Source of the DNA: an uncultured delta proteobacterium
GTDB lineage: Bacteria > Myxococcota > UBA727 > VGSZ01
DNA length: 64,000 nt
NCBI GenBank assembly: GCA_963775425.1
Contig: CAVZJB010000014.1
Span: 32,001-96,000, forward strand
Direction: 5' to 3'
Shown piece by piece: positions 23,864 through 51,572 of the stretch (positions within the stretch are counted from its first letter, which is position 1; every line of letters starts with the position of its first letter). A program made the translations under genes and the position numbers. Below the pieces are notes generated by a model, which had not been told where the DNA came from, did no database searches, and worked only from the letters and a program-made list of their open reading frames with translations.

Positions 23864-25057
23864 GTGACTCGCAAAACCGCGACGCGGCTTTGGTGCGTCG
23901 CCTTCGGGCTCGGTTTGAGCCCGCTCGCGTCGTGCAGCTGCGGATTGACCTGCGGGACTGGCACCGCAGACAACGGCCAGGGGCAGTGTCTGCCCGTCGG
24001 AGCAGAAGGAGAGGGAGAGGGAGAGGGGGAACAGCTCACCTGCGGCGCCGGCACCGTCGACAACGGCCAGAGCCAGTGCGTCCCTGAAAACCCGCTCGCG
24101 TGCGGCGCGGGCACCAACGACAACGGCAACGGCCAGTGCGTGGTGACCAACCCGATCACCTGCGGGGAGGGCACCGAGGAGCAGACCGGCGTGTGTCTGC
24201 CGGTCGGCACCTTCACGCCCGCGCCGGCGTCGACGAGCCTGGAGCTGCCGTTCGACGCGGCGCCGAGCCCCGACGGCAGCGTCATCTACTACACCGCCGG
24301 CGGCAGCGACGGGGAGACGCACTCGTTGTGGAGCGTCCCGTTCGACGGCAGCGCCGCGCCCAGGGAGCTCACCACGGGCCTGGTGGCGCCGCTCGGCATC
24401 GCGGTGTCGTCGGACGGCGGCACCGTGTTCGTCGGCGACACCGGCGACGAGGACGGCGCAGACCCAGACCAGATCGGCGGGCTGCTCTCGGTGGACGCGT
24501 CCACGGGCACGGCCACGCGCGTGGCGGGCGCCGACGGCTTCGAGATCAAGGGGCTCGACCTCATCGACAACAACGGCACCGACGAGATCACCTTCAGCGG
24601 GACGGATCCCGCCGACGGCGAGAAGGGCATCTTCGCGCTCGTCGGCGGGAGCGTGACGCTCATCGCCAAGGGCGCGCCGTTCAGCGACCCGAGCGGCGTC
24701 GCGGTGACGTCCACGGGTGACCGCTATGTCGTCGACACCAGCGCCGCCGAGGACGGACAGGGCGCGGTGATCAAGGTCGACTCCGCCGACGCCGCGTCGG
24801 TGTTCGTCGAGGGCATCAACGCCGGCTACCCCGCGGGCGCCGCCCTCAGCCACGACGAGGCCACGTTGTTCGTGTCGGGCATCGGCGCCGACGGCAACGC
24901 CCTCGTCAACGTCATCGACCTCGCCACCGGCAACGTCAGCTTCGTCAACACGGGCCTGTTGGGCAACGACGAAGCCGGCGGACTCCACCGCGCCAAGGAC
25001 AGCGACTCCTTCGCGTGGGCCGGCACCACCACCGTCTACGGCATCACGTTCCAGTGA
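23864..25057 (+). CDS. Lipoprotein with CGxGTxDNGxxQC repeats and a beta-propeller-like domain
   Basis: AGGAGGA RBS, LASC lipobox, four Cys-pair repeats, short GE run, NHL/SGL-like PLGIAVS, PSGVAVT and PAGAALS. Confidence 0.75.
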   Translation: MTRKTATRLWCVAFGLGLSPLASCSCGLTCGTGTADNGQGQCLPVGAEGEGEGEGEQLTCGAGTVDNGQSQCVPENPLACGAGTNDNGNGQCVVTNPITCGEGTEEQTGVCLPVGTFTPAPASTSLELPFDAAPSPDGSVIYYTAGGSDGETHSLWSVPFDGSAAPRELTTGLVAPLGIAVSSDGGTVFVGDTGDEDGADPDQIGGLLSVDASTGTATRVAGADGFEIKGLDLIDNNGTDEITFSGTDPADGEKGIFALVGGSVTLIAKGAPFSDPSGVAVTSTGDRYVVDTSAAEDGQGAVIKVDSADAASVFVEGINAGYPAGAALSHDEATLFVSGIGADGNALVNVIDLATGNVSFVNTGLLGNDEAGGLHRAKDSDSFAWAGTTTVYGITFQ

Positions 25058-25086
25058 ACCCCATCAAGGAAATCAGGAGAGACATC

Positions 25087-26481: not shown

Positions 26482-26639
26482 TCGCGCCGGGACCGGCGCG
26501 GGGAAAACGGCCTCGCGCCGGCCCCGGGGCATGTGCGCCCGCACAGAGCGGTCGCTGTATGACTCCGGTTGTGACGGGGCCCCCACTTTCGGGGGCCTCG
26601 TCGTTTGGTCAGGATCCACCCGTGGCTCGTAGGTCAGGC

Positions 26640-28007
26640 ATGAAGCGCACCTCTCCCCTCGCCGCCCTCGCCCTCGCCCTCGCCTGCGCCGCGTGCTCGG
26701 CGCCGCCGCGGGCGCCGGCGCCGGCCGCGGCGGCCTCGTCCTCGCCGGCGCGCGCGCTCTGCCTCGCGACGCCCGGCGCCGCCGCCCCCGACGGCAGCGG
26801 CGCGGCGGAGGTGGACGGCGTGTTGAAGGAGCGCCGCGAGGCCGTGGAGAAGGACCCCGACAAGATGGCGCTGTGGGTGCTCCTCGGGCGCGCGTGGGTG
26901 GAGAAGGCGCGCAACTCGGGGGATCCCGGCTTCTACCTGCACGCGGACGCCTGCGGCCAGGAGGTGCTCGCGCAGGAGCCCGACAACGTCCTCGCGCTCG
27001 GGCTTCGCTCGCTCGCGCTGATGAACGATCACAAGTTCGAGGACGCCAAGGCGCTCGCCGGCGAGATGCTGCAGAAGGACCGCGACGACCTCACGGCGTG
27101 GGGGACGCTGTCCGACGCCGAGCTCGAGCTCGGCCACATCGACGCCGCCGAGAAGGCCGCCCAGGAGATGATGGATCGCAAGCCGTCGTTGCCGTCGTAC
27201 GCGCGCGCCTCGTACTTGAAGTGGCTGCGCGGCGACGACGACGGCGCGCTCGAGGCCATTCGGCTCGCGTACGACGCGGGCCGCGGCCAGAAGGATCATG
27301 AGCCGTCGGCGTGGGTGCTGTCCGAGGCCGCGAAGATCTTCTGGATGCGCGGCGACGTCGCCGGCGCTGAGAGGGGCTACGACATGGCGCTCGCCGAGAA
27401 GGCCGATCACCCGCAGGCGCTGGTGGGCAAGGCGCGCTGCCTCATCGCCGAGGGGAAAGCGGCGCAGGCGCTGCCGCTCCTCGAGGAGGCCTGGCAGAAG
27501 CGGCCGCTGGTGAAGACCGCGTGGTGGGTGTCCAAGGCCCACGACGTCCTCGGGCACGCCGCGGACAAGGAGCGCTGGCTGCAAAAGGCCATCGACCACG
27601 GCAAGGAGGGCGACCGCCGCACGCTCGCGCTCGTGCTCGCCACCGTGAACCGCGACATCCCGCTCGCCGAGCAGAGCGTCGCGCTCGACAACGCCCACCG
27701 CGGCGGCCCCTACGCCGACGACATCGCCGCGCTCACCGCGTGGCGCGCTGGCGACATGAAGACCGCGCTCGCCGCGAGCGCGCACGCCTTGTCGCTCGGG
27801 ACACCGGACCCGATGCTGCGTTTGCACCGCGGGGTGATCCTCGCCGCGAGCGGCGACGCGTCGGGCAAGAAGCTCGTCGCGGACGCGCTCGCCCAGGGCA
27901 TGCGCTTCGATCCGTCGGCGGTGGCGCTGGCGGGCGAGGTGGGCGTCCCGGCGCCCTCGTCGTCGCCGTCGCTGCCCGGCGCTCGCGTGGCCGGGGGTGT
28001 CCCGTGA
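26640..28007 (+). CDS. TPR-repeat lipoprotein (DUF4331-associated)
   Basis: ACAAC lipobox; KARNSGDPGFY, DAELELG, KPSLPSYARASY; helical repeats. Confidence 0.85.
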   Translation: MKRTSPLAALALALACAACSAPPRAPAPAAAASSSPARALCLATPGAAAPDGSGAAEVDGVLKERREAVEKDPDKMALWVLLGRAWVEKARNSGDPGFYLHADACGQEVLAQEPDNVLALGLRSLALMNDHKFEDAKALAGEMLQKDRDDLTAWGTLSDAELELGHIDAAEKAAQEMMDRKPSLPSYARASYLKWLRGDDDGALEAIRLAYDAGRGQKDHEPSAWVLSEAAKIFWMRGDVAGAERGYDMALAEKADHPQALVGKARCLIAEGKAAQALPLLEEAWQKRPLVKTAWWVSKAHDVLGHAADKERWLQKAIDHGKEGDRRTLALVLATVNRDIPLAEQSVALDNAHRGGPYADDIAALTAWRAGDMKTALAASAHALSLGTPDPMLRLHRGVILAASGDASGKKLVADALAQGMRFDPSAVALAGEVGVPAPSSSPSLPGARVAGGVP

Positions 28008-35036: not shown

Positions 35037-35924
35037 GTGAGCGGCGCTCCGTTCGCGGGCGAGCACGTCGGGCACCTCGCGGCGCTGGCGTGCGCCTCGA
35101 TGTGGGCGCTGTCGACGGTGCTGTTCGGCGCGGCCGCGCGCACCGTCGACCCGCGCGCGCTGAACCTCTTGAAGTGCGCGCTGGCGGCCCCGCTCCTCGG
35201 CGTCACCGCGCTGCTCCTCGGAGACCTGCCGGCGTTTTCGGCGCGGGACTCGGCGGCGCTGGCGGTGTCGGCGCTGTTCGGCATCGTCGTGGCCGACACC
35301 GCGTACTTCGTGGCGCTCAAGGAGCTCGGCGCGGCCCGCGGCGTTCTCTTCGTGGCGCTCATCCCCGTATGCACGTCGCTGTTGGCGCTGCCCGTGCTCG
35401 GCGAAGCGCTCGAGCCGCGGATGGTGGCGGGGATGATCGTGACGCTCTCGGGCGTGGTGGTGGTGGTGCGCGGCCGCGCGCGGGGCGCCGGCAGGGGGCG
35501 CATCGGGGTGGGCGTCGTCGCCGGCGTCGTCTACTGCACGGCGCAGGCGGCGGCGAACGTCCTGCAGAAGGGTGTGGACCCGGCGCTGTCGCCGCTGTCG
35601 CTGTCGTTCTTCCGCTTGAGCATCGGCGCGGCGGTCATCGCGCTCTCGCTCGTCGTCACCGTGCGCGGCCGCAGGGACATCGCGGCGCTGCGGCCCGTGC
35701 TCGCGCGCGGCTCCCTCGGGACCCTCGCGGGCGCGTACGCGGGGCTCTTGCTCGGGACCTACGCCATCCGCACGGTGCCGACGGGCGTGGCGACCACGCT
35801 CATCGCGACCACGCCCCTGTTCGCCCTGGTCGCCGCGCGCGTCGTCGACAAGGAGACCCCGAGCGCCCGCACGCTCGCCGGCGCGCTCCTGGCCCTCGCC
35901 GGCGTCGCGCTCTTGATGCTCTGA
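35037..35924 (+). CDS. DMT/EamA family transporter
   Basis: About 10 TM helices in two repeats; SALFGIVVADTAYF, LIATTPLFAL. Confidence 0.9.
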   Translation: MSGAPFAGEHVGHLAALACASMWALSTVLFGAAARTVDPRALNLLKCALAAPLLGVTALLLGDLPAFSARDSAALAVSALFGIVVADTAYFVALKELGAARGVLFVALIPVCTSLLALPVLGEALEPRMVAGMIVTLSGVVVVVRGRARGAGRGRIGVGVVAGVVYCTAQAAANVLQKGVDPALSPLSLSFFRLSIGAAVIALSLVVTVRGRRDIAALRPVLARGSLGTLAGAYAGLLLGTYAIRTVPTGVATTLIATTPLFALVAARVVDKETPSARTLAGALLALAGVALLML

Positions 35925-36104: not shown

Positions 36105-37892
<1,788 letters not shown>

Positions 37893-37929
37893 CGACGGTC
37901 GCCGACGCGGGCGGCGAGCGCCTTGCGGC

Positions 37930-38673
37930 TCACACGACGAGGCCGCCGTCCACGTTGATGACGGCGCCGGTGATGTAGCTCGCGTCGTCGCTGGCGAGGA
38001 ACGCGTACACCGCCGCGATCTCTTCAGGCTTCGCCAGGCGCTGCAGCGGTGTGCGCTCGCTCATCGCCGCGAGCACGCTCTGCGGCACGGGCGCGGTCAT
38101 GGGCGTCTCGACGAAGCCGGGGGCCACGGCGTTCACGCGCACGTTGCTCCGTCCGAGCTCGCGCGCGAGGGTCTTGGTGAGGCCGATGACGCCCGCCTTG
38201 GACGCCACGTAGTTCGACTGGCCGAAGTTGCCCGTGTGCGCCACCACCGAGGCGGCGTTCAGGATGACGCCGTGCTTTTGCACCTTCATCTTGGCCGCGG
38301 CGGCCTGAGAGAGGCGGAACACGGCGGTGAGGTTGACGGCGATGACCTTGTCCCAGTCGTCGACGCTCAGCTTGCCGACGGACGCGTCACGCGTGATGCC
38401 GGCGTTGTTCACGAGGACGTCGACGCCGCCCTCCATGGCTTCCGCGACCGCGGTGAGGCCTTGCGCACTTGCAACATCGGCGGCGACGTAGCGCACGCGC
38501 GCGCCGGGGGCGTCTTCGGCGCCGAGCGCTGCCGCCAGCCCCGTCTCCGAGAGCGGCCGCAGGTCGACGGCGATCACGCGCGCGCCCTCGTCGAGAAATC
38601 GCCGCGCCGTCGCGAGCCCGATGCCGCTCGCCGCGCCCGTCACCACCGCCGTCTTGTCTTTGAGTCCACGCAT
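37930..38673 (-). CDS. SDR: acetoacetyl-CoA / 3-oxoacyl reductase (PhaB/FabG-like)
   Basis: TGAASGIG, NNAGITRD, GNFGQSNYVASK; PHA-cluster context favours a PhaB-type role. Confidence 0.9.
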   Translation of the reverse strand: MRGLKDKTAVVTGAASGIGLATARRFLDEGARVIAVDLRPLSETGLAAALGAEDAPGARVRYVAADVASAQGLTAVAEAMEGGVDVLVNNAGITRDASVGKLSVDDWDKVIAVNLTAVFRLSQAAAAKMKVQKHGVILNAASVVAHTGNFGQSNYVASKAGVIGLTKTLARELGRSNVRVNAVAPGFVETPMTAPVPQSVLAAMSERTPLQRLAKPEEIAAVYAFLASDDASYITGAVINVDGGLVV

Positions 38674-38732
38674 GATCGCTCCTGGGAGAGAAAGGGTGCG
38701 CGGCCAACGTGCGCGCCTGCGGGCTGCGCACG

Positions 38733-38746
38733 TTGCGCCGCACAAA
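38733..38746. promoter_or_regulatory. Putative PhaR operator (imperfect)
   Basis: TTGC-GCC-GCACAAA upstream of the SDR gene. Confidence 0.5.
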
Positions 38747-38755
38747 TCGAGGTGC

Positions 38756-39016
38756 TTAGGCGAGCATCGCGCGGGCGCCGTTGACGAAGGCGCGGCCGGC
38801 CTCATGCATCGCGTGCGCCTGGGCGGCGGAGTAGCGGCTCGACTCCTGCACGGTGCGCTCCCACTCGGCGAAGCCCTTCTCCATGGCGGCCGCGCTCTCG
38901 TCGAGCATCCGCTGGGCCTCGCCCCGCCAGAACTGGGTGAGCGTGTAAAACGGCGCGGCCGCGTCGGCTGGGGGGGTGCGGGGGGCGGTCTTCTGCTCGG
39001 TCTTGTTGTCGCTCAC
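38756..39016 (-). CDS. Small amphipathic helical protein, putative phasin
   Basis: AAGGAGG RBS; 86 aa, Ala/Glu/Gln-rich; lies between phaR and the SDR gene with an operator upstream. Confidence 0.6.
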   Translation of the reverse strand: MSDNKTEQKTAPRTPPADAAAPFYTLTQFWRGEAQRMLDESAAAMEKGFAEWERTVQESSRYSAAQAHAMHEAGRAFVNGARAMLA

Positions 39017-39076
39017 GGTGTCCTCCTTGGTGTGAGTGACCGCAAGCTAGGCAGCGCTCGCAACTGCGTCAAGGAT

Positions 39077-39095
39077 TTTTGTGCAACGCACAAAA
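39077..39095. promoter_or_regulatory. Putative PhaR operator
   Basis: Perfect inverted repeat TTTTGTGC-AAC-GCACAAAA upstream of the phasin-like gene. Confidence 0.75.
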
Positions 39096-39216
39096 CCACC
39101 GGATCCGCCCGATCAGCGACCGGAGGGAGCGGCCGCGCTTGATCAGGGTCGCCGTCCGCGCGACGCGGGGGACGAGCCCCCGCCCTGCGGGGCGCCGGAG
39201 CGGCCGAGGACCGGGT

Positions 39217-39795
<579 letters not shown>

Positions 39796-39859
39796 GTCCC
39801 GTACGTAGGAGACCGGTGCGCATCCGTCAATCGGACGATTCCGATCCGGCGCGCCCGGA

Positions 39860-39910
39860 TGTGCGAATGCACAAAACCCCCTTGACAAATCCGCGCCCGC
39901 CCGGCTGAAT
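39860..39910 (+). promoter_or_regulatory. Putative PhaR operator plus -35 box of the PHA operon promoter
   Basis: TGTGC-GAAT-GCACAAAA (39860-39876) followed by TTGACA (39882-39887). Confidence 0.65.
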
Positions 39911-39917
39911 CCGCGCC

Positions 39918-40892
39918 ATGACGGGATCCGATCGCATGCTGCTTCGCAACATCGAGCCCGGTTCGAGCGCGGCCCTCCGCCCCGAGGACGTGCCCGCCGT
40001 CGTCGACGACGCCACCCTCGCCGCGGTCCTGCGCGCCGGCCGCCCCGACGAGCTCGTCTCCGGCGCACAGCGCGGCCTCCTCACCGTGCGCGGCCTCGCT
40101 TGCCCCACCATCGCCGCCGGCAGCGGCCGCCCCGTCCTCTGCGTGCACGGCCTCGGGCACGACGCGTGGGACTTCGGCCCGCTCTTTGTGCGATGCACAA
40201 AAGCCGCGTCGCTCCTCGCGTTCGACCTCCCCGGCTTCGGCCTCGCGGACAAGGTCCCGCCCGCCTCCGCGCCCGCACAGACGTTCGACATGGAGCTGTA
40301 TGTCGAGGCGCTGCTCGCGGCGGCGGCGCTCGCGCCGGAGCCGCCGGTGGTGGTCGCGTCTTCCCTCGGTGGCCACATCGCGCTGATCGCCGCCATGCGC
40401 GCGCCCCGGGCGTTCGCCCGCCTGGTGCTGGCGGCCCCTGGTGGCCTCGTCGGCGCGCCCGGCCCGCTGCAGGCCCTGCTCCGCGCCTACTACGCCGTGG
40501 ACTCCATCTGCGCCCGCAGCGAGCAGGAGCTCACGAGCAACAGCCACAAGATCTTCGCGCGCCGCGGCCTCGCCGCCGCCGACGCGCTCGCGGCGCGCAA
40601 GCTGGCGGTGCACCGCTCCGCGCGCAAGCGCGAGTTCGCCGTGCCGTTCGCCGGCATCGTCGACGACGTGTTTCGTCACGTCATCATGGACCGCGTCGCC
40701 GACGTGCGCGTGCCCACGCTGATCCTGTCGGGCGAGCGCGACGTCGTCGTCCCCCCCGACGCCTGCGCCACGGCCGCCCGCCGCATGGGCGCCCGCTTCG
40801 TGTCCTTCCCCGGCGTCGGGCACTGCCCGCACCTCGAGATCCCCGACGTCTTCGCCGACGCCGTCGTCACCTTCATCCACGGAGAAGCATGA
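39918..40892 (+). CDS. Alpha/beta hydrolase (cytoplasmic)
   Basis: VHGLG, FDLPGFG, nucleophile ASSLGG, GERDVVV, GHCPHLE. Confidence 0.9.
   Translation: MTGSDRMLLRNIEPGSSAALRPEDVPAVVDDATLAAVLRAGRPDELVSGAQRGLLTVRGLACPTIAAGSGRPVLCVHGLGHDAWDFGPLFVRCTKAASLLAFDLPGFGLADKVPPASAPAQTFDMELYVEALLAAAALAPEPPVVVASSLGGHIALIAAMRAPRAFARLVLAAPGGLVGAPGPLQALLRAYYAVDSICARSEQELTSNSHKIFARRGLAAADALAARKLAVHRSARKREFAVPFAGIVDDVFRHVIMDRVADVRVPTLILSGERDVVVPPDACATAARRMGARFVSFPGVGHCPHLEIPDVFADAVVTFIHGEA
40185..40201. promoter_or_regulatory. Intragenic copy of the putative PhaR operator
   Basis: TTTGTGC-GAT-GCACAAA inside the hydrolase CDS, with AT-ending codons atypical of the gene. Confidence 0.55.
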
Positions 40893-42612
40893 TGTTGCCC
40901 GGAGACTGGACCGAAGGCCTCGCGCGCCTGTTCTCGGAGAGCATCGCCGTCGTCGACGAGCGCACCGGTGAGCGCGTCAGCTACCGGGCCCTCTTCGCCC
41001 GCACCAGCGCCACCGCCGCCGCGCTCCAGGCGCTCGGCGTCGAAAAGGGCGATCGCGTCGCCGTGCTCGCCAAGAACCGGCTGGAGCACCTCGAGCTCAT
41101 GTTCGCCTGCGCTCGCCTCGGCGCGCTGTTCCTCCCGATGAACTGGCGCCTCGCGGAGCCCGAGCTCGGCTACATCCTCGACGACGCCGAGCCGTCCGTC
41201 CTCTTCTTCGAGCCGTCCTTCGCAGACGCCGCAAACCGCTTGTGCGCGGCACGCAACGTGCGGGCGCTCGGGCTCGACGGCGAAGAGGGCCTCGAGAAGC
41301 TCGCGCGCGCCGGCGCCAAGCAGGCGCCGGTGAAGCAGGCGCCGCTCGGCGAGGACGATCCGTGGCTCATCCTGTACACCTCGGGGACCACCGGCCACCC
41401 CAAGGGCGCGCTCCTGCCGCACCGGCAGGTCGCGTACAACGCGCTCAACACCATCGTCGCCCTGGACCTCGCCGCGGCCGACAAGACCGTCACCTACACG
41501 CCGCTGTTCCACACGGGCGGCCTGCACGTCCTCACCACGCCGCTGCTCATGAAGGGCGGCACCGTGGTGCTCGCCGACGGCTTCGAGCCCGAGCGCTTCC
41601 TGCAGCTCAACGCGCGCGAGCGCTGCACGCTCCTGTTCGGCGTGCCCACCACGTTCGAAATGATGGCGCAGGCGCAGGCGTTCACCGACGTCGATCTGTC
41701 GTCGCTGCGCGTGGCCCTGTGCGGCGGCGCCCCGTGCCCGCTGTCGCTGATCGAGCGCTACACCAGGCGGGGCATCGTCTTCAAACAGGGCTACGGCCTC
41801 ACCGAGGTGGGGCCCAACGTGCTCAACCTCAACGCCGAGGACGTCGTCAAGAAGGCGGGGAGCGCCGGCCGCCCCAACCTCTTCATCACCGCCCGCATCG
41901 ACGGCGACACCGCGCACACGGGCAAGGGCCGCGGCGAGCTGCTCCTCGGCGGGCCGTGCGTGTGCCTGGGCTACTGGCGCAAGCCGGAGGCCACCCGCGC
42001 CGCGTTCACGGCGGACGGCTTGTTCCGCACCGGCGACGTCGTCGAGGTGGACGCCGACGGCTTCATGACCATCGTCGACCGCGCCAAGGACATGTTCATC
42101 TCCGGCGGCGAGAACGTGTACCCGGCGGAGGTCGAGAAGGTCCTCGCGGATCATCCCGCGGTGCGCGCGGCGGCCGTGGTCGGCATCGCGGACGCGCGCT
42201 GGGGCGAGGTCGGCCGGGCGTACGTCGAGGCGCGCGAGGCCGTGGAGCCTGCGGCGCTCGTGCAGTTCGCGCGGGCGCGCCTCGCCGCCTACAAGGTGCC
42301 GAAGGACGTCGTCGTCGTCGACGAGCTCCCGCGCAACCCGAGCGGCAAGGTGCAAAAGCACCTGCTGTCCCGCGCCCCCACCGCGGCCGCGGCGCCGTCG
42401 TCGTCGACACAGGCGTCGTCGACACGGGCGTCCTCGACACGGGCGTCGTCGACACAGGCGTCGTCGACACAGGCGTCCTCGACACAGGCGTCCTCGACAC
42501 AGGCGTCCTCGACACAGGCGTCGTCGACACAGGCGTCCTCGACGCAGGCGTCGTCGTCCGGCTCTGCGGCGCAGGCGCCCGGCGCCGCGCCGCGCCGCAA
42601 GGAGGCGCGCGC

Positions 42613-42616
<4 letters not shown>
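40889..42616 (+). CDS. Acyl-CoA synthetase (AMP-binding) with repetitive C-terminal tail
   Basis: YTSGTTGHPKG, QGYGLTE, FRTGD, DRAKDMFISGGENVYPAEVE, LPRNPSGK. Confidence 0.95.
42401..42550 (+). repeat. 15-bp tandem repeat x10 encoding SST(Q/R)A
   Basis: Consensus TCSTCGACACRGGCG units from 42401, in frame. Confidence 0.95.
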
Positions 42617-43631
<1,015 letters not shown>

Positions 43632-43632
<1 letters not shown>

Positions 43633-44690
43633 TGGCCGAGCGCGCGGTGATGCTCGCTTCGTGCGCGGCGCTCGTCGTCGCGTCGTCGTGCGTGACGCCG
43701 GGTCTTCACACCACCGCCGCGCCGGCCACCGCCGGCGACGGCACGCGCATGGTGCAGGTGCGCGGCGCGTGGCTCCGCGTGCTCGCGCTCGGGCCGCCGC
43801 GAGGGCCGAGCCCCGGCCCGTCGGCCGCCGACGCTGACGCTGACGCCGACGCCAACGCCGTCGCCGGCGCCGGCGACGCAGCCGGGGGCGCCGGCGCGCC
43901 GGTGGTGTTCGTGCACGGCTTCGGCTCTCGCCTCGAGGCGTGGAAGCTCGTGCAGCCCGAGGTGGCCAAGACGCGGCGGACGCTGAGCTTCGATCAGCGC
44001 GGCTTCGGGCTGTCCGAGCGCGCAGAGGGCGCGTACGGGCCCGAGTCGCACGCCGCCGACCTGCTCGCGCTCCTCGACGAGGAGCACATCGATCGCGCGG
44101 TGCTGGTCGGCCACAGCTACGGCGCCGGCGTCGTGCTCCGGCTCGCCCTGCGTCACCCCGAGCGCGTCGCGGGGATCGTGCTCGTGTCGCCGTTCGCGCT
44201 CGACGAGCAGGTGGGCTCGTACTTCCACTGGGCGATGGTCCCCGGCCTCGGCGAGGCGATGTTCAGCGCGCAGTTCCGCGACTTCCCCGGCGAGAAGTAC
44301 CTGCTCGCGTTCGGCCCCGAGGCCAGGAAGAAGTACGTCTCCGTCGCCGCGCTCGACGAGGTGCAGCGGCTGCAGGCGAAGGACGGCTCCACCTACGCCG
44401 CCCTCGCCACCATCCGCGGCATGGACTACGCGTCCGTCGAGGACGCGTACGCGAAGATCGCGGTCTCCGTCACGGTGGTGTGGGGCGAGAAGGATCGTGT
44501 GGCGCCCATCAAGCGCCTCGAGACGTTCGCCGCCAAGCTCCCTCACGCGCGCTTCGTGCGCGTCCCGGGCGTCGGCCACATGCCGCCGTGGGAGAAGCCC
44601 GACGTCGTCGTCGACGCGGTGCTCGGCGCGCGCGACGCGCCGACGCGCCAGGCCGACACCGACGCGGGCGCCGCGGGAGGTGCGCGGTGA
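43632..44690 (+). CDS. Alpha/beta hydrolase, probable lipoprotein (exported esterase)
   Basis: VASSC lipobox-like; VHGFG, FDQRGFG, GHSYG, GEKD, GHMP. Confidence 0.9.
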
Positions 44691-46195
44691 GCGCGTTGGC
44701 TTTCGCCTTCGTCGCCGCGCTCGCGGCGCGCACCGGCACCGGCGACCCCGCCGAGATCTTCCGTGACAAGGATCCGCAGAGCGACCTCGTGCTCCACGGC
44801 CAGCTTCGCCTGCGCTCGGCGCTGTACAACAACCTCGAGCTCGACCGCCGCCTCTTCAAGCCCGACGCGCTCTTCCCGCAGGGGCTCGTCCTCGGCAACG
44901 ACGCGCGCGTGCGCCTCACGCCCTCGTTCTTCATCGGGGACGACCTGCGCGCGTTCCTCGACGTCGACCTCGTCACCGCGTCGCTCGGTGAGCCGGCGAG
45001 CGGCGGGCCCTACACGGTCCACGACCCGTTCCAGTCGTCGTTCCTCGACGTGCGCGCCGCCGGCGTCGACTGGCTCCTGCCCGTGGGCGTGCTCTCCATC
45101 GGCCGCATGCCCTCGCACTTCGCGCTCGGCATCGCCGCCAACGACGGCGCCGACCTCGACGACGACAACGGCGATCACGCCGACCGCGTCGCCCTCGTCC
45201 TGCCGCTGTACGGCCACCTGCTCGCCGCCGCCTTCGACGTCCTCGACCCGAACGCCCACACGCCGGGCTCGGCGCCCGCGGTGGGCGAGCAGGCGGTCAC
45301 CCTCGGCGTCATGAAGTGGCGCGCGCCCTGGGAGATCGCGCTGTACCGGGACGCCGGCCGCGCCGTCTTCGACTACGGCCTCGCGCTCAGCGCGGAGTGG
45401 TCGCTGAAGGACGCGCCCGGTCCGTGGGCGCTCATCGATCAACAGCTCGAGCCCGACGTCACCGTCGTCCGTCACGACACGCACCTCTTCGTCGCCGACG
45501 CGTGGACGCGCCTGGTGTTCGGCGCCGTGCGGCTCGAGGCCGAGGGCTTCGTCAGCGACCTCGGCATCGACAACCCCTCCGCCATCCCCGGCGTCGACGT
45601 GCGCGAGCCCATCACGGGCAACCCCGCGGCCGCCGCGCTCGTCGCCGACGTACGCGCCTTCGACGACGCGAGCGCCGACGGCGCGCACGCGCTCCTCGAG
45701 CTCGGCGCCGCGTCGGCGGATCCGGCGCCGGGCTTCCCCGCCGCCGACCCGACCACCGCCGCGGGCGCGCGCCCCGGCGACGTCTTCGGTCCGCAGGTCG
45801 TGTTCGTGCGCGACATGCGCTTCGACGCCGCGCGCATGCACCCGCTGCACCGCGTCGACCTCATCCTGTGGCGCACGCTGCTCGGCGGCGTCTCCGAGGC
45901 GGGCTACGTGCGGCTCAACGTCGCGGGCTCGCCGCTGCCGTGGCTGCGCCTCGAGGGCAACGCCATCTATTCGCAGGCGTTCGCCCCGGGCAGCGCCCCC
46001 GGGGGCGTCGGCCCCCTCGGCGTCGAGGTCGACGGCGCCGCCGTCGTCAGCGCGCCCTTCGCCCCCGGCGTCTCCCTGCGCGTCGACGCCGGCAACCTCT
46101 TTCCCCTCGGCGGGCTCGCCGACCTCGGCGGTTCGCCGACGTCGGTGTCGTCGTGGGCGCAGATGGTCATCGTGAGGCTCGGCTATGCGCTTTGA
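44687..46195 (+). CDS. Outer-membrane beta-barrel (TIGR04551-like)
   Basis: LHGQLRLR first strand, GRMPSHFALGIAANDG...DDNGDHADR, VDLILWR, LGVEVD, C-terminal VRLGYAL. Confidence 0.7.
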   Translation: MSALAFAFVAALAARTGTGDPAEIFRDKDPQSDLVLHGQLRLRSALYNNLELDRRLFKPDALFPQGLVLGNDARVRLTPSFFIGDDLRAFLDVDLVTASLGEPASGGPYTVHDPFQSSFLDVRAAGVDWLLPVGVLSIGRMPSHFALGIAANDGADLDDDNGDHADRVALVLPLYGHLLAAAFDVLDPNAHTPGSAPAVGEQAVTLGVMKWRAPWEIALYRDAGRAVFDYGLALSAEWSLKDAPGPWALIDQQLEPDVTVVRHDTHLFVADAWTRLVFGAVRLEAEGFVSDLGIDNPSAIPGVDVREPITGNPAAAALVADVRAFDDASADGAHALLELGAASADPAPGFPAADPTTAAGARPGDVFGPQVVFVRDMRFDAARMHPLHRVDLILWRTLLGGVSEAGYVRLNVAGSPLPWLRLEGNAIYSQAFAPGSAPGGVGPLGVEVDGAAVVSAPFAPGVSLRVDAGNLFPLGGLADLGGSPTSVSSWAQMVIVRLGYAL

Positions 46196-46203
46196 ACGCC
46201 CCC

Positions 46204-46223
46204 GGCGGGGGACAAGCCCCCGC
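46204..46223. repeat. REP-like palindrome (inverted copy of 10761-10780)
   Basis: GGCGGGGGACAAGCCCCCGC is the exact reverse complement of 10761-10780. Confidence 0.75.
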
Positions 46224-46226
46224 GCC

Positions 46227-47072
46227 ATGACGGTGCTCGTCGTCGTCGCCGCCGTCGTCGCGGCCGGGGCATGCGCGCCCGCGCCCGCGCCGGAGGACAC
46301 GCTGTTCACGCCGGTGGTGCTCCCCGCGTGCAACGCCAACGCCGACGGCATCATCGAGCACGACGAGATGCCGTTCGTCGTCGGCGCCACCGCGCGGGTG
46401 CGCGTCGGCGAGAACGTCCCCGTCGACGTCGCCGGCGCGCCCGCCAGCTCCGTCGGCGGCGGGGGCAGCGCGCGGGTGTGGGACCTCTCGCGCCCCGACC
46501 CCGACAGCGAGCCGGTGGGCCTCCTCACGCTGCAGTCGATGGACGGCCAGTGGTTCGCCGGCGACTTCCCGGACGCCGACTACGCCGGCCCCCTCGCGCC
46601 GGGCGGCGGTCTGCTCGGCCCGCTCGTCGTCGACGCCGACGGCGTCAAGCTCCTCGGCTCCGTCAGCGCCGACGAGAGCCCGCCGGAGGGACGCACCGAG
46701 CTCGCCTATCAGGACCCGGTGATGCTCTATCCGTTCCCGCTCCAGGTCGGCACCCACGCGGTCACAGAGACCCAGGCCGTCGACGGGGTGGCCCAGGGCA
46801 TCCCCGTCGCCGTCGACGACACCTACACCATCGACGTCACCGCCCACGGCAAGGTCATCCTCAAAGACCTCGTCCTCGAGGACGCCCTGCGCGTCACCGT
46901 GCGCCTCGAGCGCGTCCCCGTCGCCGGCATCGCCGTGCAGCAGGTGACGCAGGTGTTCGTCAACGAGTGCGTCGGCGAGGTCGCCCGCTTCGTGTCTCCG
47001 TTCGTCCCCCTCGACCAGGAGCTGCCCGACGACTTCGACGTCGCCGAGCAGGTCTGGCGCCTCTCCCTGTAA
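46227..47072 (+). CDS. Lipoprotein, paralog of 42613..43632
   Basis: AAGAC lipobox; NADGIIEHDEMP, WDLS, GQWFAGDF, YQDPVMLYPFPL. Confidence 0.78.
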   Translation: MTVLVVVAAVVAAGACAPAPAPEDTLFTPVVLPACNANADGIIEHDEMPFVVGATARVRVGENVPVDVAGAPASSVGGGGSARVWDLSRPDPDSEPVGLLTLQSMDGQWFAGDFPDADYAGPLAPGGGLLGPLVVDADGVKLLGSVSADESPPEGRTELAYQDPVMLYPFPLQVGTHAVTETQAVDGVAQGIPVAVDDTYTIDVTAHGKVILKDLVLEDALRVTVRLERVPVAGIAVQQVTQVFVNECVGEVARFVSPFVPLDQELPDDFDVAEQVWRLSL

Positions 47073-47108
47073 CCCCTTGCCCGCACCCCCATCGACCCAG
47101 GAGAAACC

Positions 47109-47327
47109 GTGTCGACCGACAAGAAGCAACAGCCGCTGCCCGAAGAAGCGCTCGACAAGATGATCAGCCTCATCGAGGGCCCCATGAACACCGCCGGCGA
47201 GAAGATCCTGTCGTCGACGATCGTCCTCGCCCCCCTCTCCCTCGGCATGGACCTCTCCATGCGCGCGCTCGCCCGACTGCGCGGCGCCGTCGACAACGAT
47301 CGCTTCGGAAAGAAGGCCCGCCGATGA
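47109..47327 (+). CDS. 72-aa protein coupled to phaC (candidate minimal synthase partner)
   Basis: AGGAG RBS before the GTG; stop overlaps the phaC ATG. Confidence 0.65.
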   Translation: MSTDKKQQPLPEEALDKMISLIEGPMNTAGEKILSSTIVLAPLSLGMDLSMRALARLRGAVDNDRFGKKARR

Positions 47328-48430
47328 TGACCGAGATCCTTTCGCGCAGCGGCTTGTTCAGCGCCGTCCCCACCGCGCTCGCCCGCATGAACGGCGCCAT
47401 GATGCTCGCGCGCGTCTCCCTCGATCGCACGCCGGCCCCGGTGGCGCCGTCGCCCGCCGTGGTCATCGCCACCGAGGGCGCCGCGCAGCTCATGCGCTAC
47501 GAGGCCGTGCCCGGCGTCGCCAAGAAGGACCCGATCCTCTTGTGCCCGAGCCTCATCAACCGGCTCTACGTGCTCGACCTCAAGGAGGGCATCTCCGTCG
47601 TCGAGGTGCTCAGAAAGGCCGGCCACACCGTCTACGGCATCGACTGGGGCGAGCCCGGCGAGGCCGAGCGCGGCGTGCGGTTCGAGGGCTTCGTGCGCCG
47701 CCTGCAGCGCTTCCTCGAGGTCGGCTGCGCCGACGCCGGCGTCGAGCGCATGCACCTGCTCGGGCACTGCCTCGGCGGCACCATGGCCACCGCGCTCGCC
47801 GCCACCGACGACAGCCGCATCCAGAGCCTCATCAACCTCACCGCCCCCGTCGCCTTCCACGACGCCGGGCTGTTGTCCAAGTGGACGCGCGCGCCGTTCT
47901 TCCACGCCGAAAACGTCGTGCGCGCCGTGGGCCACGTCCCGCCCTGGCTCACGCAGCCGGCGTTTCAAATCTTGAAGCCCATGGGGCAGCCGTCGAAGGC
48001 GCTGCGCCTGTTCCAGTCGCTCGACAAGCCGCAGTTCCTCGAGTTCTTCCGCTGCCTCGAGACCTGGATCAACGACAACGTCTCCATCCCCGACGCCTTC
48101 TTCGTCGACCTCGTCGAGGTGCTCTACAAGAAAGACGGCCTCGTCACCGGCAAGCTGCACTTCGCCGAGGGCCCGGTGGTGCTCGAGGAGGTCACGGTGC
48201 CGCTGCTCACGGTGGCGGCCGCCGAGGACCACATCGTGCCCAAGGACTCCGCGCTCGCCGGCGTCGCGCGCTTCTCCTCGAAGAAGAAGCGCACCGAGGT
48301 GCTCCCCGGCGGCCACATCGGCGTCGTCGTCGGCGGCCTCGCCCGCCGCCGCTTGTGGCCGCTGCTCCTCGAGTGGCTCGAGGAGACCGCGCTGCCTCCT
48401 CCCGCCATGAAGCTCGAGGTGCTCCAGTGA
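47324..48430 (+). CDS. phaC: Class III-type PHA synthase
   Basis: PSLINRLYVLDL, IDWGEP, lipase-like box GHCLGG, EDHIVP, GGHIG; about 368 aa. Confidence 0.9.
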   Translation: MMTEILSRSGLFSAVPTALARMNGAMMLARVSLDRTPAPVAPSPAVVIATEGAAQLMRYEAVPGVAKKDPILLCPSLINRLYVLDLKEGISVVEVLRKAGHTVYGIDWGEPGEAERGVRFEGFVRRLQRFLEVGCADAGVERMHLLGHCLGGTMATALAATDDSRIQSLINLTAPVAFHDAGLLSKWTRAPFFHAENVVRAVGHVPPWLTQPAFQILKPMGQPSKALRLFQSLDKPQFLEFFRCLETWINDNVSIPDAFFVDLVEVLYKKDGLVTGKLHFAEGPVVLEEVTVPLLTVAAAEDHIVPKDSALAGVARFSSKKKRTEVLPGGHIGVVVGGLARRRLWPLLLEWLEETALPPPAMKLEVLQ

Positions 48431-49632
48431 CCGCCATCGCCGCCGCCGCGCGCGGCGCCGGCGTCGCCGTCGACGGCCGCGCCCGCCAGCTCGCCATCGG
48501 GGCGTTGATGCCGATGGTCTACATGCTCTTCGGCGTCACCTGGCTCGCCTACGTGCCGCTGCTCCCCGAGGTGGCCAAGAGCGTCGACAAGCCCATCCCC
48601 GAGGCGGCGTTCCTCATCGTCGTCATCTCGTGGGCCAAGAGCTTCGTGCCCATCCTCGCCGGCATCGTCGCCGCGCGCATCGGGCTCACCAACGCACTGC
48701 GCGTGGGCGGCGTCCTCGTGCTGGTCGGCGCCGCCGCCCCGTGGATGCACAGCTACGGCGTGGCCGTGGCCGTGCGCTTCCTCTTCGGCATGGGCGGCGC
48801 CGTGTGGGTGACGCTTATGGGGCCGGTGGTGCTGGCGTCCCTGTCGCCGTCGCAGCGCCCGGTCGCCAACGCCGTCAACGGCGTCGCCGTCAACGCGGGC
48901 ATCGTCATCGCCTACGCGGTGACGTTGCCGCTCGCGAAGCTCATCGGTCCGCAGTGGGCGCTGACGCTCGCGAGCGTGCTCACGGGCGCGTGCCTGATGG
49001 CGCTCGGCTTCTGCGGCAAGCTCGGCGACGTCGCGCCCGTCTCGGTCTTCGGCACGCTCAAGGCCTACGCGCGCACGCTCAAGCTCCCGGCCACGTGGAT
49101 CCTGGCGGTGGCCTTCTGCGGCCCGCTCGCCTTGTACCTGATGCTGAACACGTACCTGTCGCAGCACCTGATCGCGGCGTACCACCTGGACCGCAGCGCG
49201 GCGTCGCACTGGATGATCTGGCTGAACATCTGGGCGCTCCCCGCGTCGCTGTTGTCGGGCGTGCTCCTGCGCCGCTTCAAGACCCCGGTGCCCATGCTGC
49301 TCGCCGTCGTCATCGCGCCCGTCGGCCTCTACGTGGCGCTGTCCGGCGAGGGCGACGTCGCGCGCGCCGTCGGCTTCGTCCTCGTCGCCGTCGGGATGTT
49401 CCTCCCGGTGTCGCCGCTGGTGACGACCGTCCAGAAGATCCCCGGGATGTCGCCGCAGGACTTCGGGATGATCGTCGGGACCATGTTCGCCGTGAGCTAC
49501 GTGGTCTCCTCCGCGATCCCCACCGCCGTCGCCCCCCTGGTGGCGCACGGCGTCGCGCTCGGGACCCTCCTGTCCGCCGCCGGCCTGCTGGGCCTCACAC
49601 CGCTGGTGGGCCTTCTGCTCAAACGCTCGTAA
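48427..49632 (+). CDS. MFS transporter
   Basis: About 12 TM helices; motif A-like AGIVAARIG; RFLFGMG; GTGA overlap with phaC. Confidence 0.88.
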   Translation: MTAIAAAARGAGVAVDGRARQLAIGALMPMVYMLFGVTWLAYVPLLPEVAKSVDKPIPEAAFLIVVISWAKSFVPILAGIVAARIGLTNALRVGGVLVLVGAAAPWMHSYGVAVAVRFLFGMGGAVWVTLMGPVVLASLSPSQRPVANAVNGVAVNAGIVIAYAVTLPLAKLIGPQWALTLASVLTGACLMALGFCGKLGDVAPVSVFGTLKAYARTLKLPATWILAVAFCGPLALYLMLNTYLSQHLIAAYHLDRSAASHWMIWLNIWALPASLLSGVLLRRFKTPVPMLLAVVIAPVGLYVALSGEGDVARAVGFVLVAVGMFLPVSPLVTTVQKIPGMSPQDFGMIVGTMFAVSYVVSSAIPTAVAPLVAHGVALGTLLSAAGLLGLTPLVGLLLKRS

Positions 49633-49685
49633 AGCCAAATGAATTCGGGCTGTCCGGCGTTCGCCCTACATCCCGATCCACGGTC

Positions 49686-49712
49686 GCAACGGGCCCTCCG
49701 GGCGGGCGATAA
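49686..49712 (+). promoter_or_regulatory. Possible sigma28/FliA-like promoter
   Basis: GCAA-N15-GGCGATAA versus consensus TAAA-N15-GCCGATAA. Confidence 0.35.
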
Positions 49713-49747
49713 TGGGGAGAGACCTTTTCTCTTTCCAGGAGTTTCCC

Positions 49748-50260
49748 ATGTCTGACCCCGTCTCCGGAGGCATCGGCAAAGCCAGCCAACAGATGATGCA
49801 AGAGCTCCAAAAGCAGATGGAGCAGAACCAGGGCGTCGCCAAGAACGGCGGCGCCGGCCAGTTCAACGACGTCATGGCGCAGCAGGGGGTGCAGAACCCC
49901 GCGCAGGTGAACCCGGCCATGGACCCTTCGAAGGTCAACGAGACCCAGAAGGCCGCCGAGGTGCTGCGGACGGCGCAGGCGCAGCAGGTGCACGGCGTCG
50001 ACAAGTCGCTGCAGGTGAAGCCCGTCGAGGGCGCCGAGAAGACCCACGGCCTCAAGCAGGTGCTCAACCAGGTCGTCGACGGCCAGAACAAGCTCGACCA
50101 GATCATCAAGATGGCCACGAGCGGCAAGGTCTACGGCAACCAGCAGCTGCTCGCGGTGCAGGCCGCGGTCTACAAGTTCTCGCAGGAGCTCGAGCTCACC
50201 TCGAAGGTCGTGGAGAAGGCGACGTCGGGCGTGAAGCAGACCATGCAGACGCAGGTCTGA
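49748..50260 (+). CDS. Type III secretion inner-rod (SctI/EscI/HrpB2) or FliE-like protein
   Basis: AGGAG RBS; Gln-rich N-terminus; C-terminal LLAVQAAVYKFSQELELTSKVVEKATSGVKQTMQTQV. Confidence 0.7.
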   Translation: MSDPVSGGIGKASQQMMQELQKQMEQNQGVAKNGGAGQFNDVMAQQGVQNPAQVNPAMDPSKVNETQKAAEVLRTAQAQQVHGVDKSLQVKPVEGAEKTHGLKQVLNQVVDGQNKLDQIIKMATSGKVYGNQQLLAVQAAVYKFSQELELTSKVVEKATSGVKQTMQTQV

Positions 50261-50270
50261 AAGGCTGACG

Positions 50271-50348
50271 AAAAAAAAGGAGCGGAGAGCTCGGCGCCCC
50301 GGCGCTCAACTCGGCGCGAGTCTTCGTCGCCGAGCTCGGAGCTCCTTT
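50271..50348. terminator. Long imperfect inverted repeat, possible bidirectional terminator
   Basis: A8 tract; AAAGGAGC/GCTCCTTT and GAGCTCGGCG/CGCCGAGCTC arms. Confidence 0.5.
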
Positions 50349-50450
50349 CCGCTCCGCCGTGTGGCCGTAGGTGTCCGAAGGCGGGTGCCGGATTGCGGCG
50401 GGAGGCCGGCCAAACTATGACCGGCCTCCGCGCTTTTTGGGGAGGTCCCG

Positions 50451-51572
50451 ATGTCCCGCCGGCTTCGAGGGGAGCACGCCCGCCGCGTCGGCGGCGTCGC
50501 TGGCGCCTGCGTCGCCGTCGCGCTCGTCTCCGGCTGCGGCGACGTCGCGCCGCTCGGGAGCGCGGGCCCCGTGGCCGGCGTCGACGACGACAGCGGCGTG
50601 CCCGTGCAGCTCACGGGCACCGGCGTCGCCGAGCGCGAGGGCTTCGTCCCCCTCGGGCCGCCCTACCCGATCATCCTCGTGCACGGCTTCTCGGGTTGGG
50701 ACGACATCGGGCCCGTCGGCTACTTCTTCCAGGTGAAGCAGGCCCTCGAAGACGACGGCGACGACGTCACCACCCCGGCGCTGCCGCCGTACACGAGCTC
50801 CGACGAGCGCGCGCGCGTGCTCGCGAACGTCATCGACGACGTCCTCGCGCGCACGGGCAAGCGCGAGGTGCACCTCATCGGCCACAGCCAGGGAGGCATG
50901 GACATCCGCCGCGTGGTCGGCGGCATGGGCTACGGCGCCGCCGGCAAGATCGCCTCGGTGACGACGATCTCCACGCCGCACCAGGGCACCGCCGTCGCCG
51001 ACCTCGCCGCTTCCGCCCCCGACGGCGTCTTGAACCCGGCGGGCCAGCTCTTGCAGTGGCTCCTCGGCGCCGGCGGCGCGCCCCCCGACCAGGCGAGCTG
51101 GGCCAGCGACGACACCAGCGACGCCTGGACGCCCGACCTCGCCGACTCCATCCGCAGCCTCACGCCCGCGGCCGCGCGTGAGCTCGCGGCGCACAACCGC
51201 ATCCCCGCGGACATCCCGTTCTTCACCGTCGCGGGCGTCTCCAACCTGCGCTCGCTCGACAACCCGCAGTGCGCGGCGTCTCTGTGGGGCCGCGGCGACG
51301 CCGTCGACGACACCGACCCCCTGCTCGTCGCCTCGGGGACGTACCTGTCGTTCACCGACGGCGGCGACGTCGGCCAGCCCACGCCCAACGACGGCCTCGT
51401 GACGGTGGCCTCGGCGCGGGCGCCGGAGAGCACGTTCCTCGGCTGCGTCCCCGCCGACCACTTCGACGAGATCGGCCAGGTCGCCGACGTCATCCCCGAC
51501 ATCATCTCGGGCTGGGACCACGTGGCGTTCTACCGCCGGCTGGTCGCGCAGATTCGTACGACGGAGCAATGA
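50451..51572 (+). CDS. Triacylglycerol lipase (family I-like), lipoprotein
   Basis: VSGC lipobox; YPIILVHG, GHSQGG, STPHQG, NDGLV, DHFDEIGQ. Confidence 0.92.
   Translation: MSRRLRGEHARRVGGVAGACVAVALVSGCGDVAPLGSAGPVAGVDDDSGVPVQLTGTGVAEREGFVPLGPPYPIILVHGFSGWDDIGPVGYFFQVKQALEDDGDDVTTPALPPYTSSDERARVLANVIDDVLARTGKREVHLIGHSQGGMDIRRVVGGMGYGAAGKIASVTTISTPHQGTAVADLAASAPDGVLNPAGQLLQWLLGAGGAPPDQASWASDDTSDAWTPDLADSIRSLTPAAARELAAHNRIPADIPFFTVAGVSNLRSLDNPQCAASLWGRGDAVDDTDPLLVASGTYLSFTDGGDVGQPTPNDGLVTVASARAPESTFLGCVPADHFDEIGQVADVIPDIISGWDHVAFYRRLVAQIRTTEQ

Follow-up and report, generated by a model that had tools for sequence, protein, structure and literature searches.

A PhaR-type polyhydroxyalkanoate locus of Myxococcota with a linked envelope module of a predicted outer-membrane channel, two lipoproteins and an esterase, possibly serving uptake

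A 64,000-nucleotide stretch of DNA from an uncultured delta proteobacterium of the phylum Myxococcota (contig CAVZJB010000014.1 of assembly GCA_963775425.1; hereafter the window) carries at 37930-49632 a polyhydroxyalkanoate (PHA) locus, in which the genes of a predicted outer-membrane channel, two lipoproteins and a lipid-anchored esterase stand in one run with those of an acyl-CoA ligase, the synthase PhaC and a transporter. Storage of PHA is usually described as purely cytoplasmic and as fed by acetyl-CoA or fatty-acid metabolism. The present locus places a channel, lipoproteins, a periplasmic esterase and a putative importer within an apparently PhaR-controlled PHA operon, an arrangement kept across many Myxococcota genera. 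By analogy with known loci, it is no new kind of system but a PHA/PhaR locus to which a dedicated envelope module and a minimal PhaE have been added. We give an even chance to the reading that it is a PhaR-controlled storage locus with a recruited four-gene envelope module serving uptake; if true, carbon storage would be tied to specific substrates taken up from outside, in a phylum that is largely predatory or saprophytic, and the mini-PhaE proteins, both lipoproteins and the TIGR04551 barrels would gain a first functional handle. No account of such a locus, of TIGR04551 proteins or of a truncated PhaE was found in the available portions of the literature searched (PHA and PhaC in Myxococcota and in myxobacteria). 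An earlier note on this DNA had proposed a system for scavenging polyesters or lipids and re-polymerising them, an interpretation that the present analysis supports in part.

The locus comprises twelve genes, three on the minus strand diverging from a nine-gene run on the plus strand (lengths in amino acids, aa; ORF, open reading frame):

37930-38673, minus strand: short-chain dehydrogenase/reductase (SDR), FabG/PhaB-like, 247 aa
38756-39016, minus strand: small phasin-like ORF without a family, 86 aa
39217-39795, minus strand: phaR, 192 aa, PHB_acc_N
39918-40892, plus strand: cytoplasmic alpha/beta hydrolase, 324 aa, without signal peptide
40889-42616, plus strand: acyl-CoA ligase, 575 aa
42613-43632, plus strand: lipoprotein A, 339 aa, without a family
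43632-44690, plus strand: lipoprotein alpha/beta hydrolase (esterase), 352 aa, GHSYG nucleophile box
44687-46195, plus strand: predicted outer-membrane beta barrel, 502 aa, TIGR04551-like
46185-47072, plus strand: lipoprotein B, paralogue of lipoprotein A, 295 aa
47109-47327, plus strand: 72-aa ORF without a family
47324-48430, plus strand: PhaC, 368 aa, GHCLGG box
48427-49632, plus strand: inner-membrane transporter of the major facilitator superfamily (MFS), 401 aa, MFS_1

Third-position GC picks out a single frame per gene throughout 37930-49632, and an in-frame start codon lies at every junction named in the earlier note, which confirms the genes, frames and overlapping junctions observed there; the gene names proposed at that time also agree with the Pfam and NCBIfam results. 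The long ORF of the SDR reaches 38805 and the SDR domain begins at the ATG at 38673; the 283-aa ORF running up to 40068 is an over-extension of phaR, which is taken here as 39217-39795. Six of the eight plus-strand junctions had been reported to overlap. Those six stand (40889, 42613, 43632, 44687, 47324 and 48427, with overlaps of 4, 4, 1, 4, 4 and 4 nt, respectively), but the count rises to seven of eight, with an 11-nt overlap of barrel and lipoprotein B when the latter starts at ATG 46185, the start seen in orthologues. The sole gapped junction (47072/47109, 36 nt) has AGGAG upstream. A promoter/terminator consensus scan of 37700-50500 returned no promoter and six terminator-like sites, against 3.6 +/- 2.4 in shuffled sequences. 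The assembly amounts to 8.26 Mb in 18 contigs, with 72% GC, and is 94.55% complete.

The association of envelope and PHA genes was followed through 401 genomes of the phylum from 154 genera, which are akin to one another and hence not independent samples. Lipoprotein B turned up in 70 genomes, which represent 31 genera; two copies some 3.3 kb from each other are the rule, with few exceptions. Of the 401 genomes, 176 gave PhaC-like matches at E <= 1e-15. When coordinates were compared by eye, 58 of the 70 lipoprotein-B genomes had such a match no more than about 12 kb away on the contig that carries the lipoprotein. Co-occurrence of the envelope genes with phaC and phaR in other genomes, on which the earlier note had made its interpretation depend, is borne out by this count and by the several gene orders in which it is met. 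Five of the remaining twelve genomes belong to a single genus, g4 (G003, G007-G010), with module and phaC on different contigs: the hydrolase, ligase, lipoprotein A, esterase, barrel and lipoprotein B occupy one, and the 72-aa ORF and PhaC another. G400 is 78% complete and lacks PhaC, and the matches of G379 and G381 lie on different short contigs. PHA genes are missing around the module of G047 over 7 kb downstream and 12 kb upstream, the only non-PHA context among the 70 genomes. G071 and G130 carry between lipoprotein B and the ligase a 481-aa operon gene (L051, 7973-9418, minus; L050, 7561-8925, minus) with a GYCGQG box and no Pfam or NCBIfam family, which resembles PhaC-like genes weakly (E about 2e-8 against a small local database). 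Its product fills the PhaC position in family f24 and, judged by its sequence, may be a very divergent synthase. The view that f24 holds the module without PhaC was overturned by this Cys-box relative of PhaC; G126, the last of the twelve, lay outside that check.

The linkage is found in several arrangements. Three genomes of a sister genus (L015, L016, L019) carry the whole 12-gene block in the same order, and G013, which belongs to a different family, carries it in mirror order. The Myxococcaceae-type order is lipoprotein A, hydrolase, barrel, lipoprotein B, a 97-98-aa ORF, ligase and PhaC, a run diverging from PhaR, a small ORF, a second PhaC and the SDR. In G039, a distant genome, ligase, PhaC and PhaR come first, then a 105-aa ORF and a second PhaC, and finally lipoprotein, hydrolase, barrel and lipoprotein; the junctions overlap. 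Comparison of the window's family, G013, G141/G283, the Myxococcaceae type and the G039 type gives at least four orders, and in most lineages the module lies within the ligase/PhaC operon, often translationally coupled. A neighbourhood that is fortuitous or historical, without functional coupling, could draw on the shared ancestry of related genomes, because of which the counts overstate independence. The linkage, however, is kept over at least four gene orders at 30-35% protein identity, and PhaR boxes precede the module operon in unlinked loci as well; we consider this explanation extremely improbable. On these comparisons, the association of envelope and PHA genes is beyond chance, and the module is an accessory of a wider Myxococcota PHA locus, because a core of mini-PhaE, ligase and PhaC also occurs without envelope genes. 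This core is present in five of nine module-free PhaC loci (L065, L066, L067, L068 and L070), where it diverges from PhaR and a second PhaC.

Two further observations concern distribution. The module operon of g4 continues at L049 12619-16145 (plus strand) into a penicillin-amidase-family gene (463.6 bits) and a phosphatidylserine decarboxylase. The taxonomic order to which the window belongs, as grouped in the genome search, also holds a family of 21 genomes of only 0.3-3.4 Mb, none with PhaC or the lipoprotein.

PhaR matches PHB_acc_N (PF07879) with 91.1 bits (cut-off 25) and TIGR01848 with 100.1 bits, just below the cut-off of 109.45. Candidate operators for it lie at the following positions:

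39078-39094, no strand assigned: PhaR-box palindrome TTTGTGCAACGCACAAA, beside a minus-strand TTGACG -35-like hexamer
39860-39887, plus strand: palindrome TGTGCGAATGCACA, a variant with a 2-nt spacer, in the phaR/operon divergent promoter region
40185-40201: intragenic PhaR box inside the cytoplasmic hydrolase gene

The first and third of these sites have no mismatch to YTKNTGCRNYGCANMAR, the palindromic consensus deduced for R. eutropha PhaR in the available part of PMC12849132, which likewise reports intragenic PhaR sites in that organism. The palindrome core also fits YGCRNYGCR, the S. meliloti PhaR motif given in the accessible part of PMC12542648. The 39078 box lies 62 nt upstream of the start of the 86-aa ORF, which by analogy is the classic spot for repression of a phasin gene, and the TGTGCGAATGCACA palindrome stands 8 nt upstream of TTGACA at 39882-39887. 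The pattern TGTGC-N3/4-GCACA occurs four times in the window against 0.13 expected, a number reached in none of 100 shuffles; the 8.26-Mb genome holds seven such sites, three of them within 1.1 kb here (39080, 39860 and 40187). The fourth copy in the window, TGTGC-N4-GCACA at 26532-26545, is situated in a 158-nt gap between the plus-strand genes 25054-26481 and 26640-28007.

A TGTGC-N3/4-GCACA palindrome between phaR and the operon, with TTGACA a few bases downstream, is common to the window, L015, L016 and L018, and variants of this arrangement are present in L052-L054, L058 and L060. Related loci were also scanned with a looser PhaR-box pattern, which occurs about once per 3-5 kb; outside the window its count carries no weight and only the position of a box is informative, because the loose pattern is frequent. 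Such boxes precede the module operon of the Myxococcaceae-type loci and of L051, and both halves of the split g4 locus (L049, L020, L017) are likewise preceded by them. The stand-alone module in G047 is preceded by GATGCAGTGCAGC and, after it, TTGACA. In the window, the envelope genes stand behind a candidate PhaR-type operator at the promoter of the nine-gene operon, and candidate PhaR-type operators are present at both promoters, that of the phasin-like gene and that of the operon.

PhaC is a class III-like PHA synthase whose family score is under the curated cut-off (TIGR01836, 206.3 bits, cut-off 365.3), as suggested by its matches to PhaC_N (PF07167; 29.7 bits, cut-off 23.7) and Abhydrolase_1 (58.4 bits) and by an alpha/beta hydrolase size of 368 aa, which fits the class III range of about 350-370 aa. 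C149, D302 and H331, which we take to be the catalytic positions, are invariant in seven orthologues, and the lipase box contains Cys (GHCLGG). It is the only PhaC-like gene of the genome in tblastn searches. The SDR gives 210 bits with adh_short_C2, 268 bits with NCBIfam FabG (cut-off 296) and 230.5 bits with the acetoacetyl-CoA reductase model TIGR01829 (cut-off 302.1); its orthologue adjoins PhaR or PhaC in most related loci, and the gene is present in nearly every locus variant. The 86-aa ORF (38756-39016) has a third-position GC of 0.97 and no Pfam match. A small ORF occupies the same post-phaR position in 12 loci, two of them with sub-threshold Phasin_2 hits, and Phasin_2 is above its cut-off nowhere in the genome.

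The absence of a full-size phaE, stated in the earlier note, agrees with the lack of any PF09712 match at E <= 0.1 in the 94.55% complete genome, but the 72-aa ORF could encode what is left of a PhaE-like partner of PhaC. Its orthologues accompany PhaC in eight loci, including split loci without envelope genes, and share the motif PLPEE-LD-x5-EGP-N; neither the ORF nor its seven orthologues match Pfam even at E <= 5 (0 of 8). The equivalent place in the Myxococcaceae-type loci, before ligase and PhaC, is filled by a 97-98-aa protein named PhaE by the NCBI pipeline, and all five members of this group match the C-terminal quarter of Pfam PhaE (PF09712; 37.7 bits against a gathering score of 25.7). 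The 72-aa and the 97-98-aa groups align to each other with an hhalign probability of 65% (E 5.9e-5). Complex prediction for the 72-aa ORF with PhaC gives a score of 0.43, the best of three controls scoring 0.00, with at least 74% contact agreement between runs and a partner predicted local distance difference test (pLDDT) value of at least 63. Among reference pairs, 58 of 80 solved complexes passed the mark used, as did 2 of 110 mismatched pairs; those that passed it with 0.60 or lower comprise only 7 of the 80 solved complexes and both passing mismatches, and the prediction lends weak support to the pairing. The question raised is how a class III-type PhaC would work with a partner of 72-98 residues.

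Six full-length thiolase matches lie elsewhere in the genome and none in the locus, in accordance with the earlier observation that phaA is missing there; the wider search for phaA and phaE yields thiolases and no PF09712 PhaE. These thiolases, together with the PhaB/FabG-like SDR, would suit an alternative in which uptake under PhaR control feeds general catabolism (for example of polyester oligomers or lipids) and PHA is reached only via acetyl-CoA and these thiolases, with no dedicated line from scavenging to storage. The S. meliloti PhaR regulon, which in the available part of PMC12542648 extends well past PHA genes and includes transporters, provides a precedent, and the module is separable from phaC in genus g4 and in G047. 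Its usual position in the ligase/PhaC operon, often with translational coupling, and the single non-PHA context among 70 genomes argue in the other direction, and this alternative appears unlikely.

Among the envelope proteins, the barrel scores 164 bits with TIGR04551 (cut-off 300), many of its homologues at 45-63% identity being named TIGR04551 by JGI, and it matches no Pfam family at E <= 0.01, including OprD and Alginate_exp. Its AlphaFold2 model from a 49-sequence alignment (pLDDT 80.1; predicted template modelling score 0.82) has about 18 strands. The top solved match is AlgE (Z 25.4, root-mean-square deviation (rmsd) 3.6, 369 residues aligned), followed by Occ/OprD carboxylate channels (Z about 24) and chitoporins (Z about 20). 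The protein is predicted from this model to be an 18-strand outer-membrane channel of the AlgE/OprD class. It gives Z values of 20-25 over about 320-380 residues with the Occ/OprD, chitoporin and AlgE proteins, but differs from them in having no sequence-family match and only about 10% identity, and in being flanked by two lipoproteins and a lipoprotein esterase. We know of no Occ/OprD, chitoporin or AlgE system with two dedicated lipoproteins and such an esterase. The fold gives no transport direction, because the Z values of exporter and uptake channels are tied.

The barrel shows an invariant acidic motif, D-L-D-D-D-x-G-D-x-x-D-R, at residues 158-167 (about 45158-45190) in a low-confidence loop, and invariant Arg pairs, R41/R43 and R74/R76, in its first strands. 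A second barrel homologue on contig C16 was rejected as a paralogous module; it has 770 aa and no Pfam matches, and its neighbours, an LD-carboxypeptidase and a beta-lactamase, are unrelated. Database relatives number 92 clusters for the barrel and 79 for lipoprotein B, and all of them derive from metagenome genomes, labelled Deltaproteobacteria, Myxococcales, Myxococcota or Polyangia.

Lipoproteins A and B have no Pfam match, and their paralogy, proposed earlier, is upheld by an identity of about 27-31% to each other (tblastn across loci). Lipoprotein A consists of a lipobox, a 4-Cys mini-domain, an EG-repeat linker and a beta domain paralogous to lipoprotein B; this N-terminal architecture is kept in 9 of 13 loci, the gene models of the other four starting too short. 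The EG-repeat run lies at 42775-42885, and orthologues have EG, DG or G-rich linkers of varying length. In lipoprotein B, C49 and C262 never vary, and the lipobox Cys30 hardly does. Its all-beta, half-barrel-like model (pLDDT 92.4) has no Foldseek PDB match at E <= 0.001. VIA-align comparison with representatives gives the lipoprotein 4fvs as the best match (Z 9.5, rmsd 3.9, 170 aligned), only slightly above the usual background of Z 7-8, then YmcC (2in5, Z 7.5) and LolA-type proteins (Z 4-5). One Atlas cluster neighbouring lipoprotein B carries the automatic name 'lipoprotein-sorting protein family'. A YmcC/LolA-like beta fold is tentatively predicted for the lipoproteins from the model; lipoprotein B differs from the known proteins of that fold in having no sequence-family match, and its family is confined, in the searches made, to Myxococcota metagenome genomes.

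The esterase matches Abhydrolase_1 (112.9 bits), its best solved relative being the esterase 5egn (E 2e-20), and lipobox and GHS(Y/W)G are seen in its orthologues. The cytoplasmic hydrolase matches Abhydrolase_6 (83.7 bits), with generic esterases as best solved relatives (E 1e-11). Neither hydrolase reaches the PHA-depolymerase model NF050089 (63.2 bits for the esterase and 47.2 for the cytoplasmic hydrolase, cut-off 300), and Esterase_PHB is not among the Pfam matches of either.

The direction of traffic is better approached through the inner-membrane transporter. The MFS protein gives 70.8 bits with MFS_1, and its nearest Atlas clusters are generic MFS. An MFS gene follows PhaC in the window and the sister genus and stands directly behind the stand-alone module of G047. 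In G013, G141 and G283, the gene after PhaC encodes a sodium:solute symporter (SSF; PF00474, E 1e-37), overlapping by 4 nt in G013 and G141; such genes are also found within the G063 and G115 loci, and an SSF symporter takes the MFS-equivalent position in loci L018, L058 and L074. NCBIfam assigns these symporters no substrate, the best matches being of PanF/PutP type and far below cut-off. Members of the SSF family are importers. Import is favoured over export, because SSF replaces MFS in five lineages (G013, G141, G283, G063 and G115) and the locus encodes neither a polymer translocase nor a synthase-linked inner-membrane component; the earlier preference for import is upheld in this respect.

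The opposite direction would have a product dependent on PhaC, such as short oligo-hydroxyalkanoates, or free 3-hydroxy acids released when granules are mobilised, leave through the MFS protein and the AlgE-like barrel, trimmed by the periplasmic esterase, and could serve envelope modification or secretion. It could cite the exporter AlgE as top structural match (Z 25.4), an exporter-type MFS_3 hit at a related locus and the weak fold match of the lipoprotein to YmcC, which recalls lipoproteins of capsule-export operons. Against it stand, besides the symporters and the missing translocase, the PhaR and phasin-like genes, which point to cytoplasmic granules, and the acyl-CoA ligase, which has no role in export. 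We regard outward traffic as decidedly improbable.

The ligase gives 282.7 bits with AMP-binding and 444.8 with PRK06187 (cut-off 476), and its best solved relatives are the fatty-acyl/feruloyl-CoA synthetase 8weu/8wev (E 2e-119) and FadD13 (E 2e-95). Its C-terminal tail (42383-42616) consists of tandem ASSTQ/ASSTR repeats of about 60 residues. It is not specific to the envelope module, as evident from the five module-free loci that carry it, and is therefore not evidence for the role of the module. In Pseudomonas, PhaG and an acyl-CoA ligase form a wholly cytoplasmic route supplying medium-chain PHA. A comparable arrangement here would join the hydrolase, as PhaG-type thioesterase, to the ligase for internal monomer supply, with the envelope module in a separate lipid or outer-membrane role and merely co-regulated. 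Both systems would have an alpha/beta hydrolase and a ligase feeding PhaC with 3-hydroxyacyl-CoA from free 3-hydroxy acids; the occurrence of the ligase/PhaC core without the module, the best SDR score being that to FabG, and the tentative LolA/YmcC-like lipoprotein fold, known from lipoprotein and lipid handling, would also agree. The hydrolase, however, has no PhaG model among its matches and no detected PhaG relative, and is missing in most variants (G141, the Myxococcaceae type and the G039 type). The MFS or SSF transporter that travels with the module would also be left unexplained. Internal supply is, in our judgement, quite improbable.

Under the uptake reading of the module, an exogenous ester or oligomer would reach the channel with the aid of the two possibly YmcC/LolA-like lipoproteins, of a type associated with hydrophobic cargo, and the lipid-anchored esterase would free (hydroxy)carboxylic acids in the envelope. 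The MFS protein, or the sodium:solute symporter in other lineages, would import these acids, and the ligase would convert them to CoA esters. We infer that the CoA esters would arrive at PhaC as (R)-3-hydroxyacyl-CoA, either directly or via beta-oxidation steps and reduction by the SDR, and PhaC would store the units as PHA granules, a cytoplasmic location to which PhaR and the phasin-like gene point. Nascent PHA would titrate PhaR, keeping the operon on. Direct polymerisation, as assumed in the earlier note, is not supported here: the SDR in nearly every variant and a MaoC/PhaJ-type hydratase gene between PhaC and the SSF gene in one related locus point to a route via beta-oxidation-type intermediates.

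Several observations weigh against uptake for storage. Kinship among the genomes limits the force of the counts, module and phaC are separated in g4, and G047 has the module without PHA genes. The looser PhaR-box pattern is common, the mini-PhaE, ligase and PhaC core occurs without the module, and both hydrolases fall short of the depolymerase model. The top match of the barrel, within about 1 Z unit of the uptake channels, is an alginate exporter, and the MFS protein near the Myxococcaceae-type locus L052 scores equally with MFS_1 and with MFS_3, the exporter-type 'transmembrane secretion effector'.

A bolder form of the uptake reading envisages a dedicated trans-envelope line from scavenging to storage, in which channel, lipoproteins and esterase would gather ester-bound (R)-3-hydroxyacyl units from outside the cell and these would pass straight to PhaC under a PhaR feed-forward switch. 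Candidate substrates would be prey PHA or its oligomers and 3-hydroxy fatty acids of prey lipids, relayed by symporter and CoA ligase. Prey polymer carbon would then enter the granules of the predator bypassing central metabolism. This bolder form has perhaps a minor chance of being correct and is rated unlikely. Bradymonabacteria, which are Myxococcota-related predators, accumulate PHA granules in predation, and synthesis from fatty-acid beta-oxidation has been deduced for them; the available part of PMC7460792 names fadL copies and no barrel/lipoprotein/esterase module. By analogy, their predation granules are consistent with storage from uptake, which, if true, would supply a genetic basis for the reported rise in PHA granules.

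Compared with class III phaE-phaC systems with PhaR and PhaP, the locus likewise has an approximately 40-kDa PhaC whose lipase box contains Cys, a PHB_acc_N PhaR, a small phasin-like gene and TGCRNYGCA-type palindromes at the phasin promoter -35 and in the phaR intergenic region. It differs in having no full-length PhaE (a 72-aa ORF here, and 97-98-aa C-terminal PF09712 fragments in relatives) and no phaA, in carrying an acyl-CoA ligase, four envelope genes and a transporter inside the operon, and in the PhaC score under the TIGR01836 cut-off.

Beyond the ends of the locus, an EamA transporter (35037-35924, plus strand) and, directly upstream of the SDR, an MsbA-like ABC exporter (36105-37892, plus strand; TIGR02204, 685.6 bits, cut-off 780.4) are not kept beside the locus in the sister genus. 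A Q/K/E-rich ORF of 155 aa without a Pfam family, with very low second-position GC, lies at 49793-50260 (plus strand; 182 aa from ATG 49712). The gene 0.8 kb downstream of the MFS gene (50451-51572, plus strand) encodes a 373-aa lipase-like alpha/beta hydrolase with Abhydrolase_1, Lip_C and Palm_thioest matches and a lipoprotein-type signal, LVSGC, and stands outside the block conserved in the sister genus.

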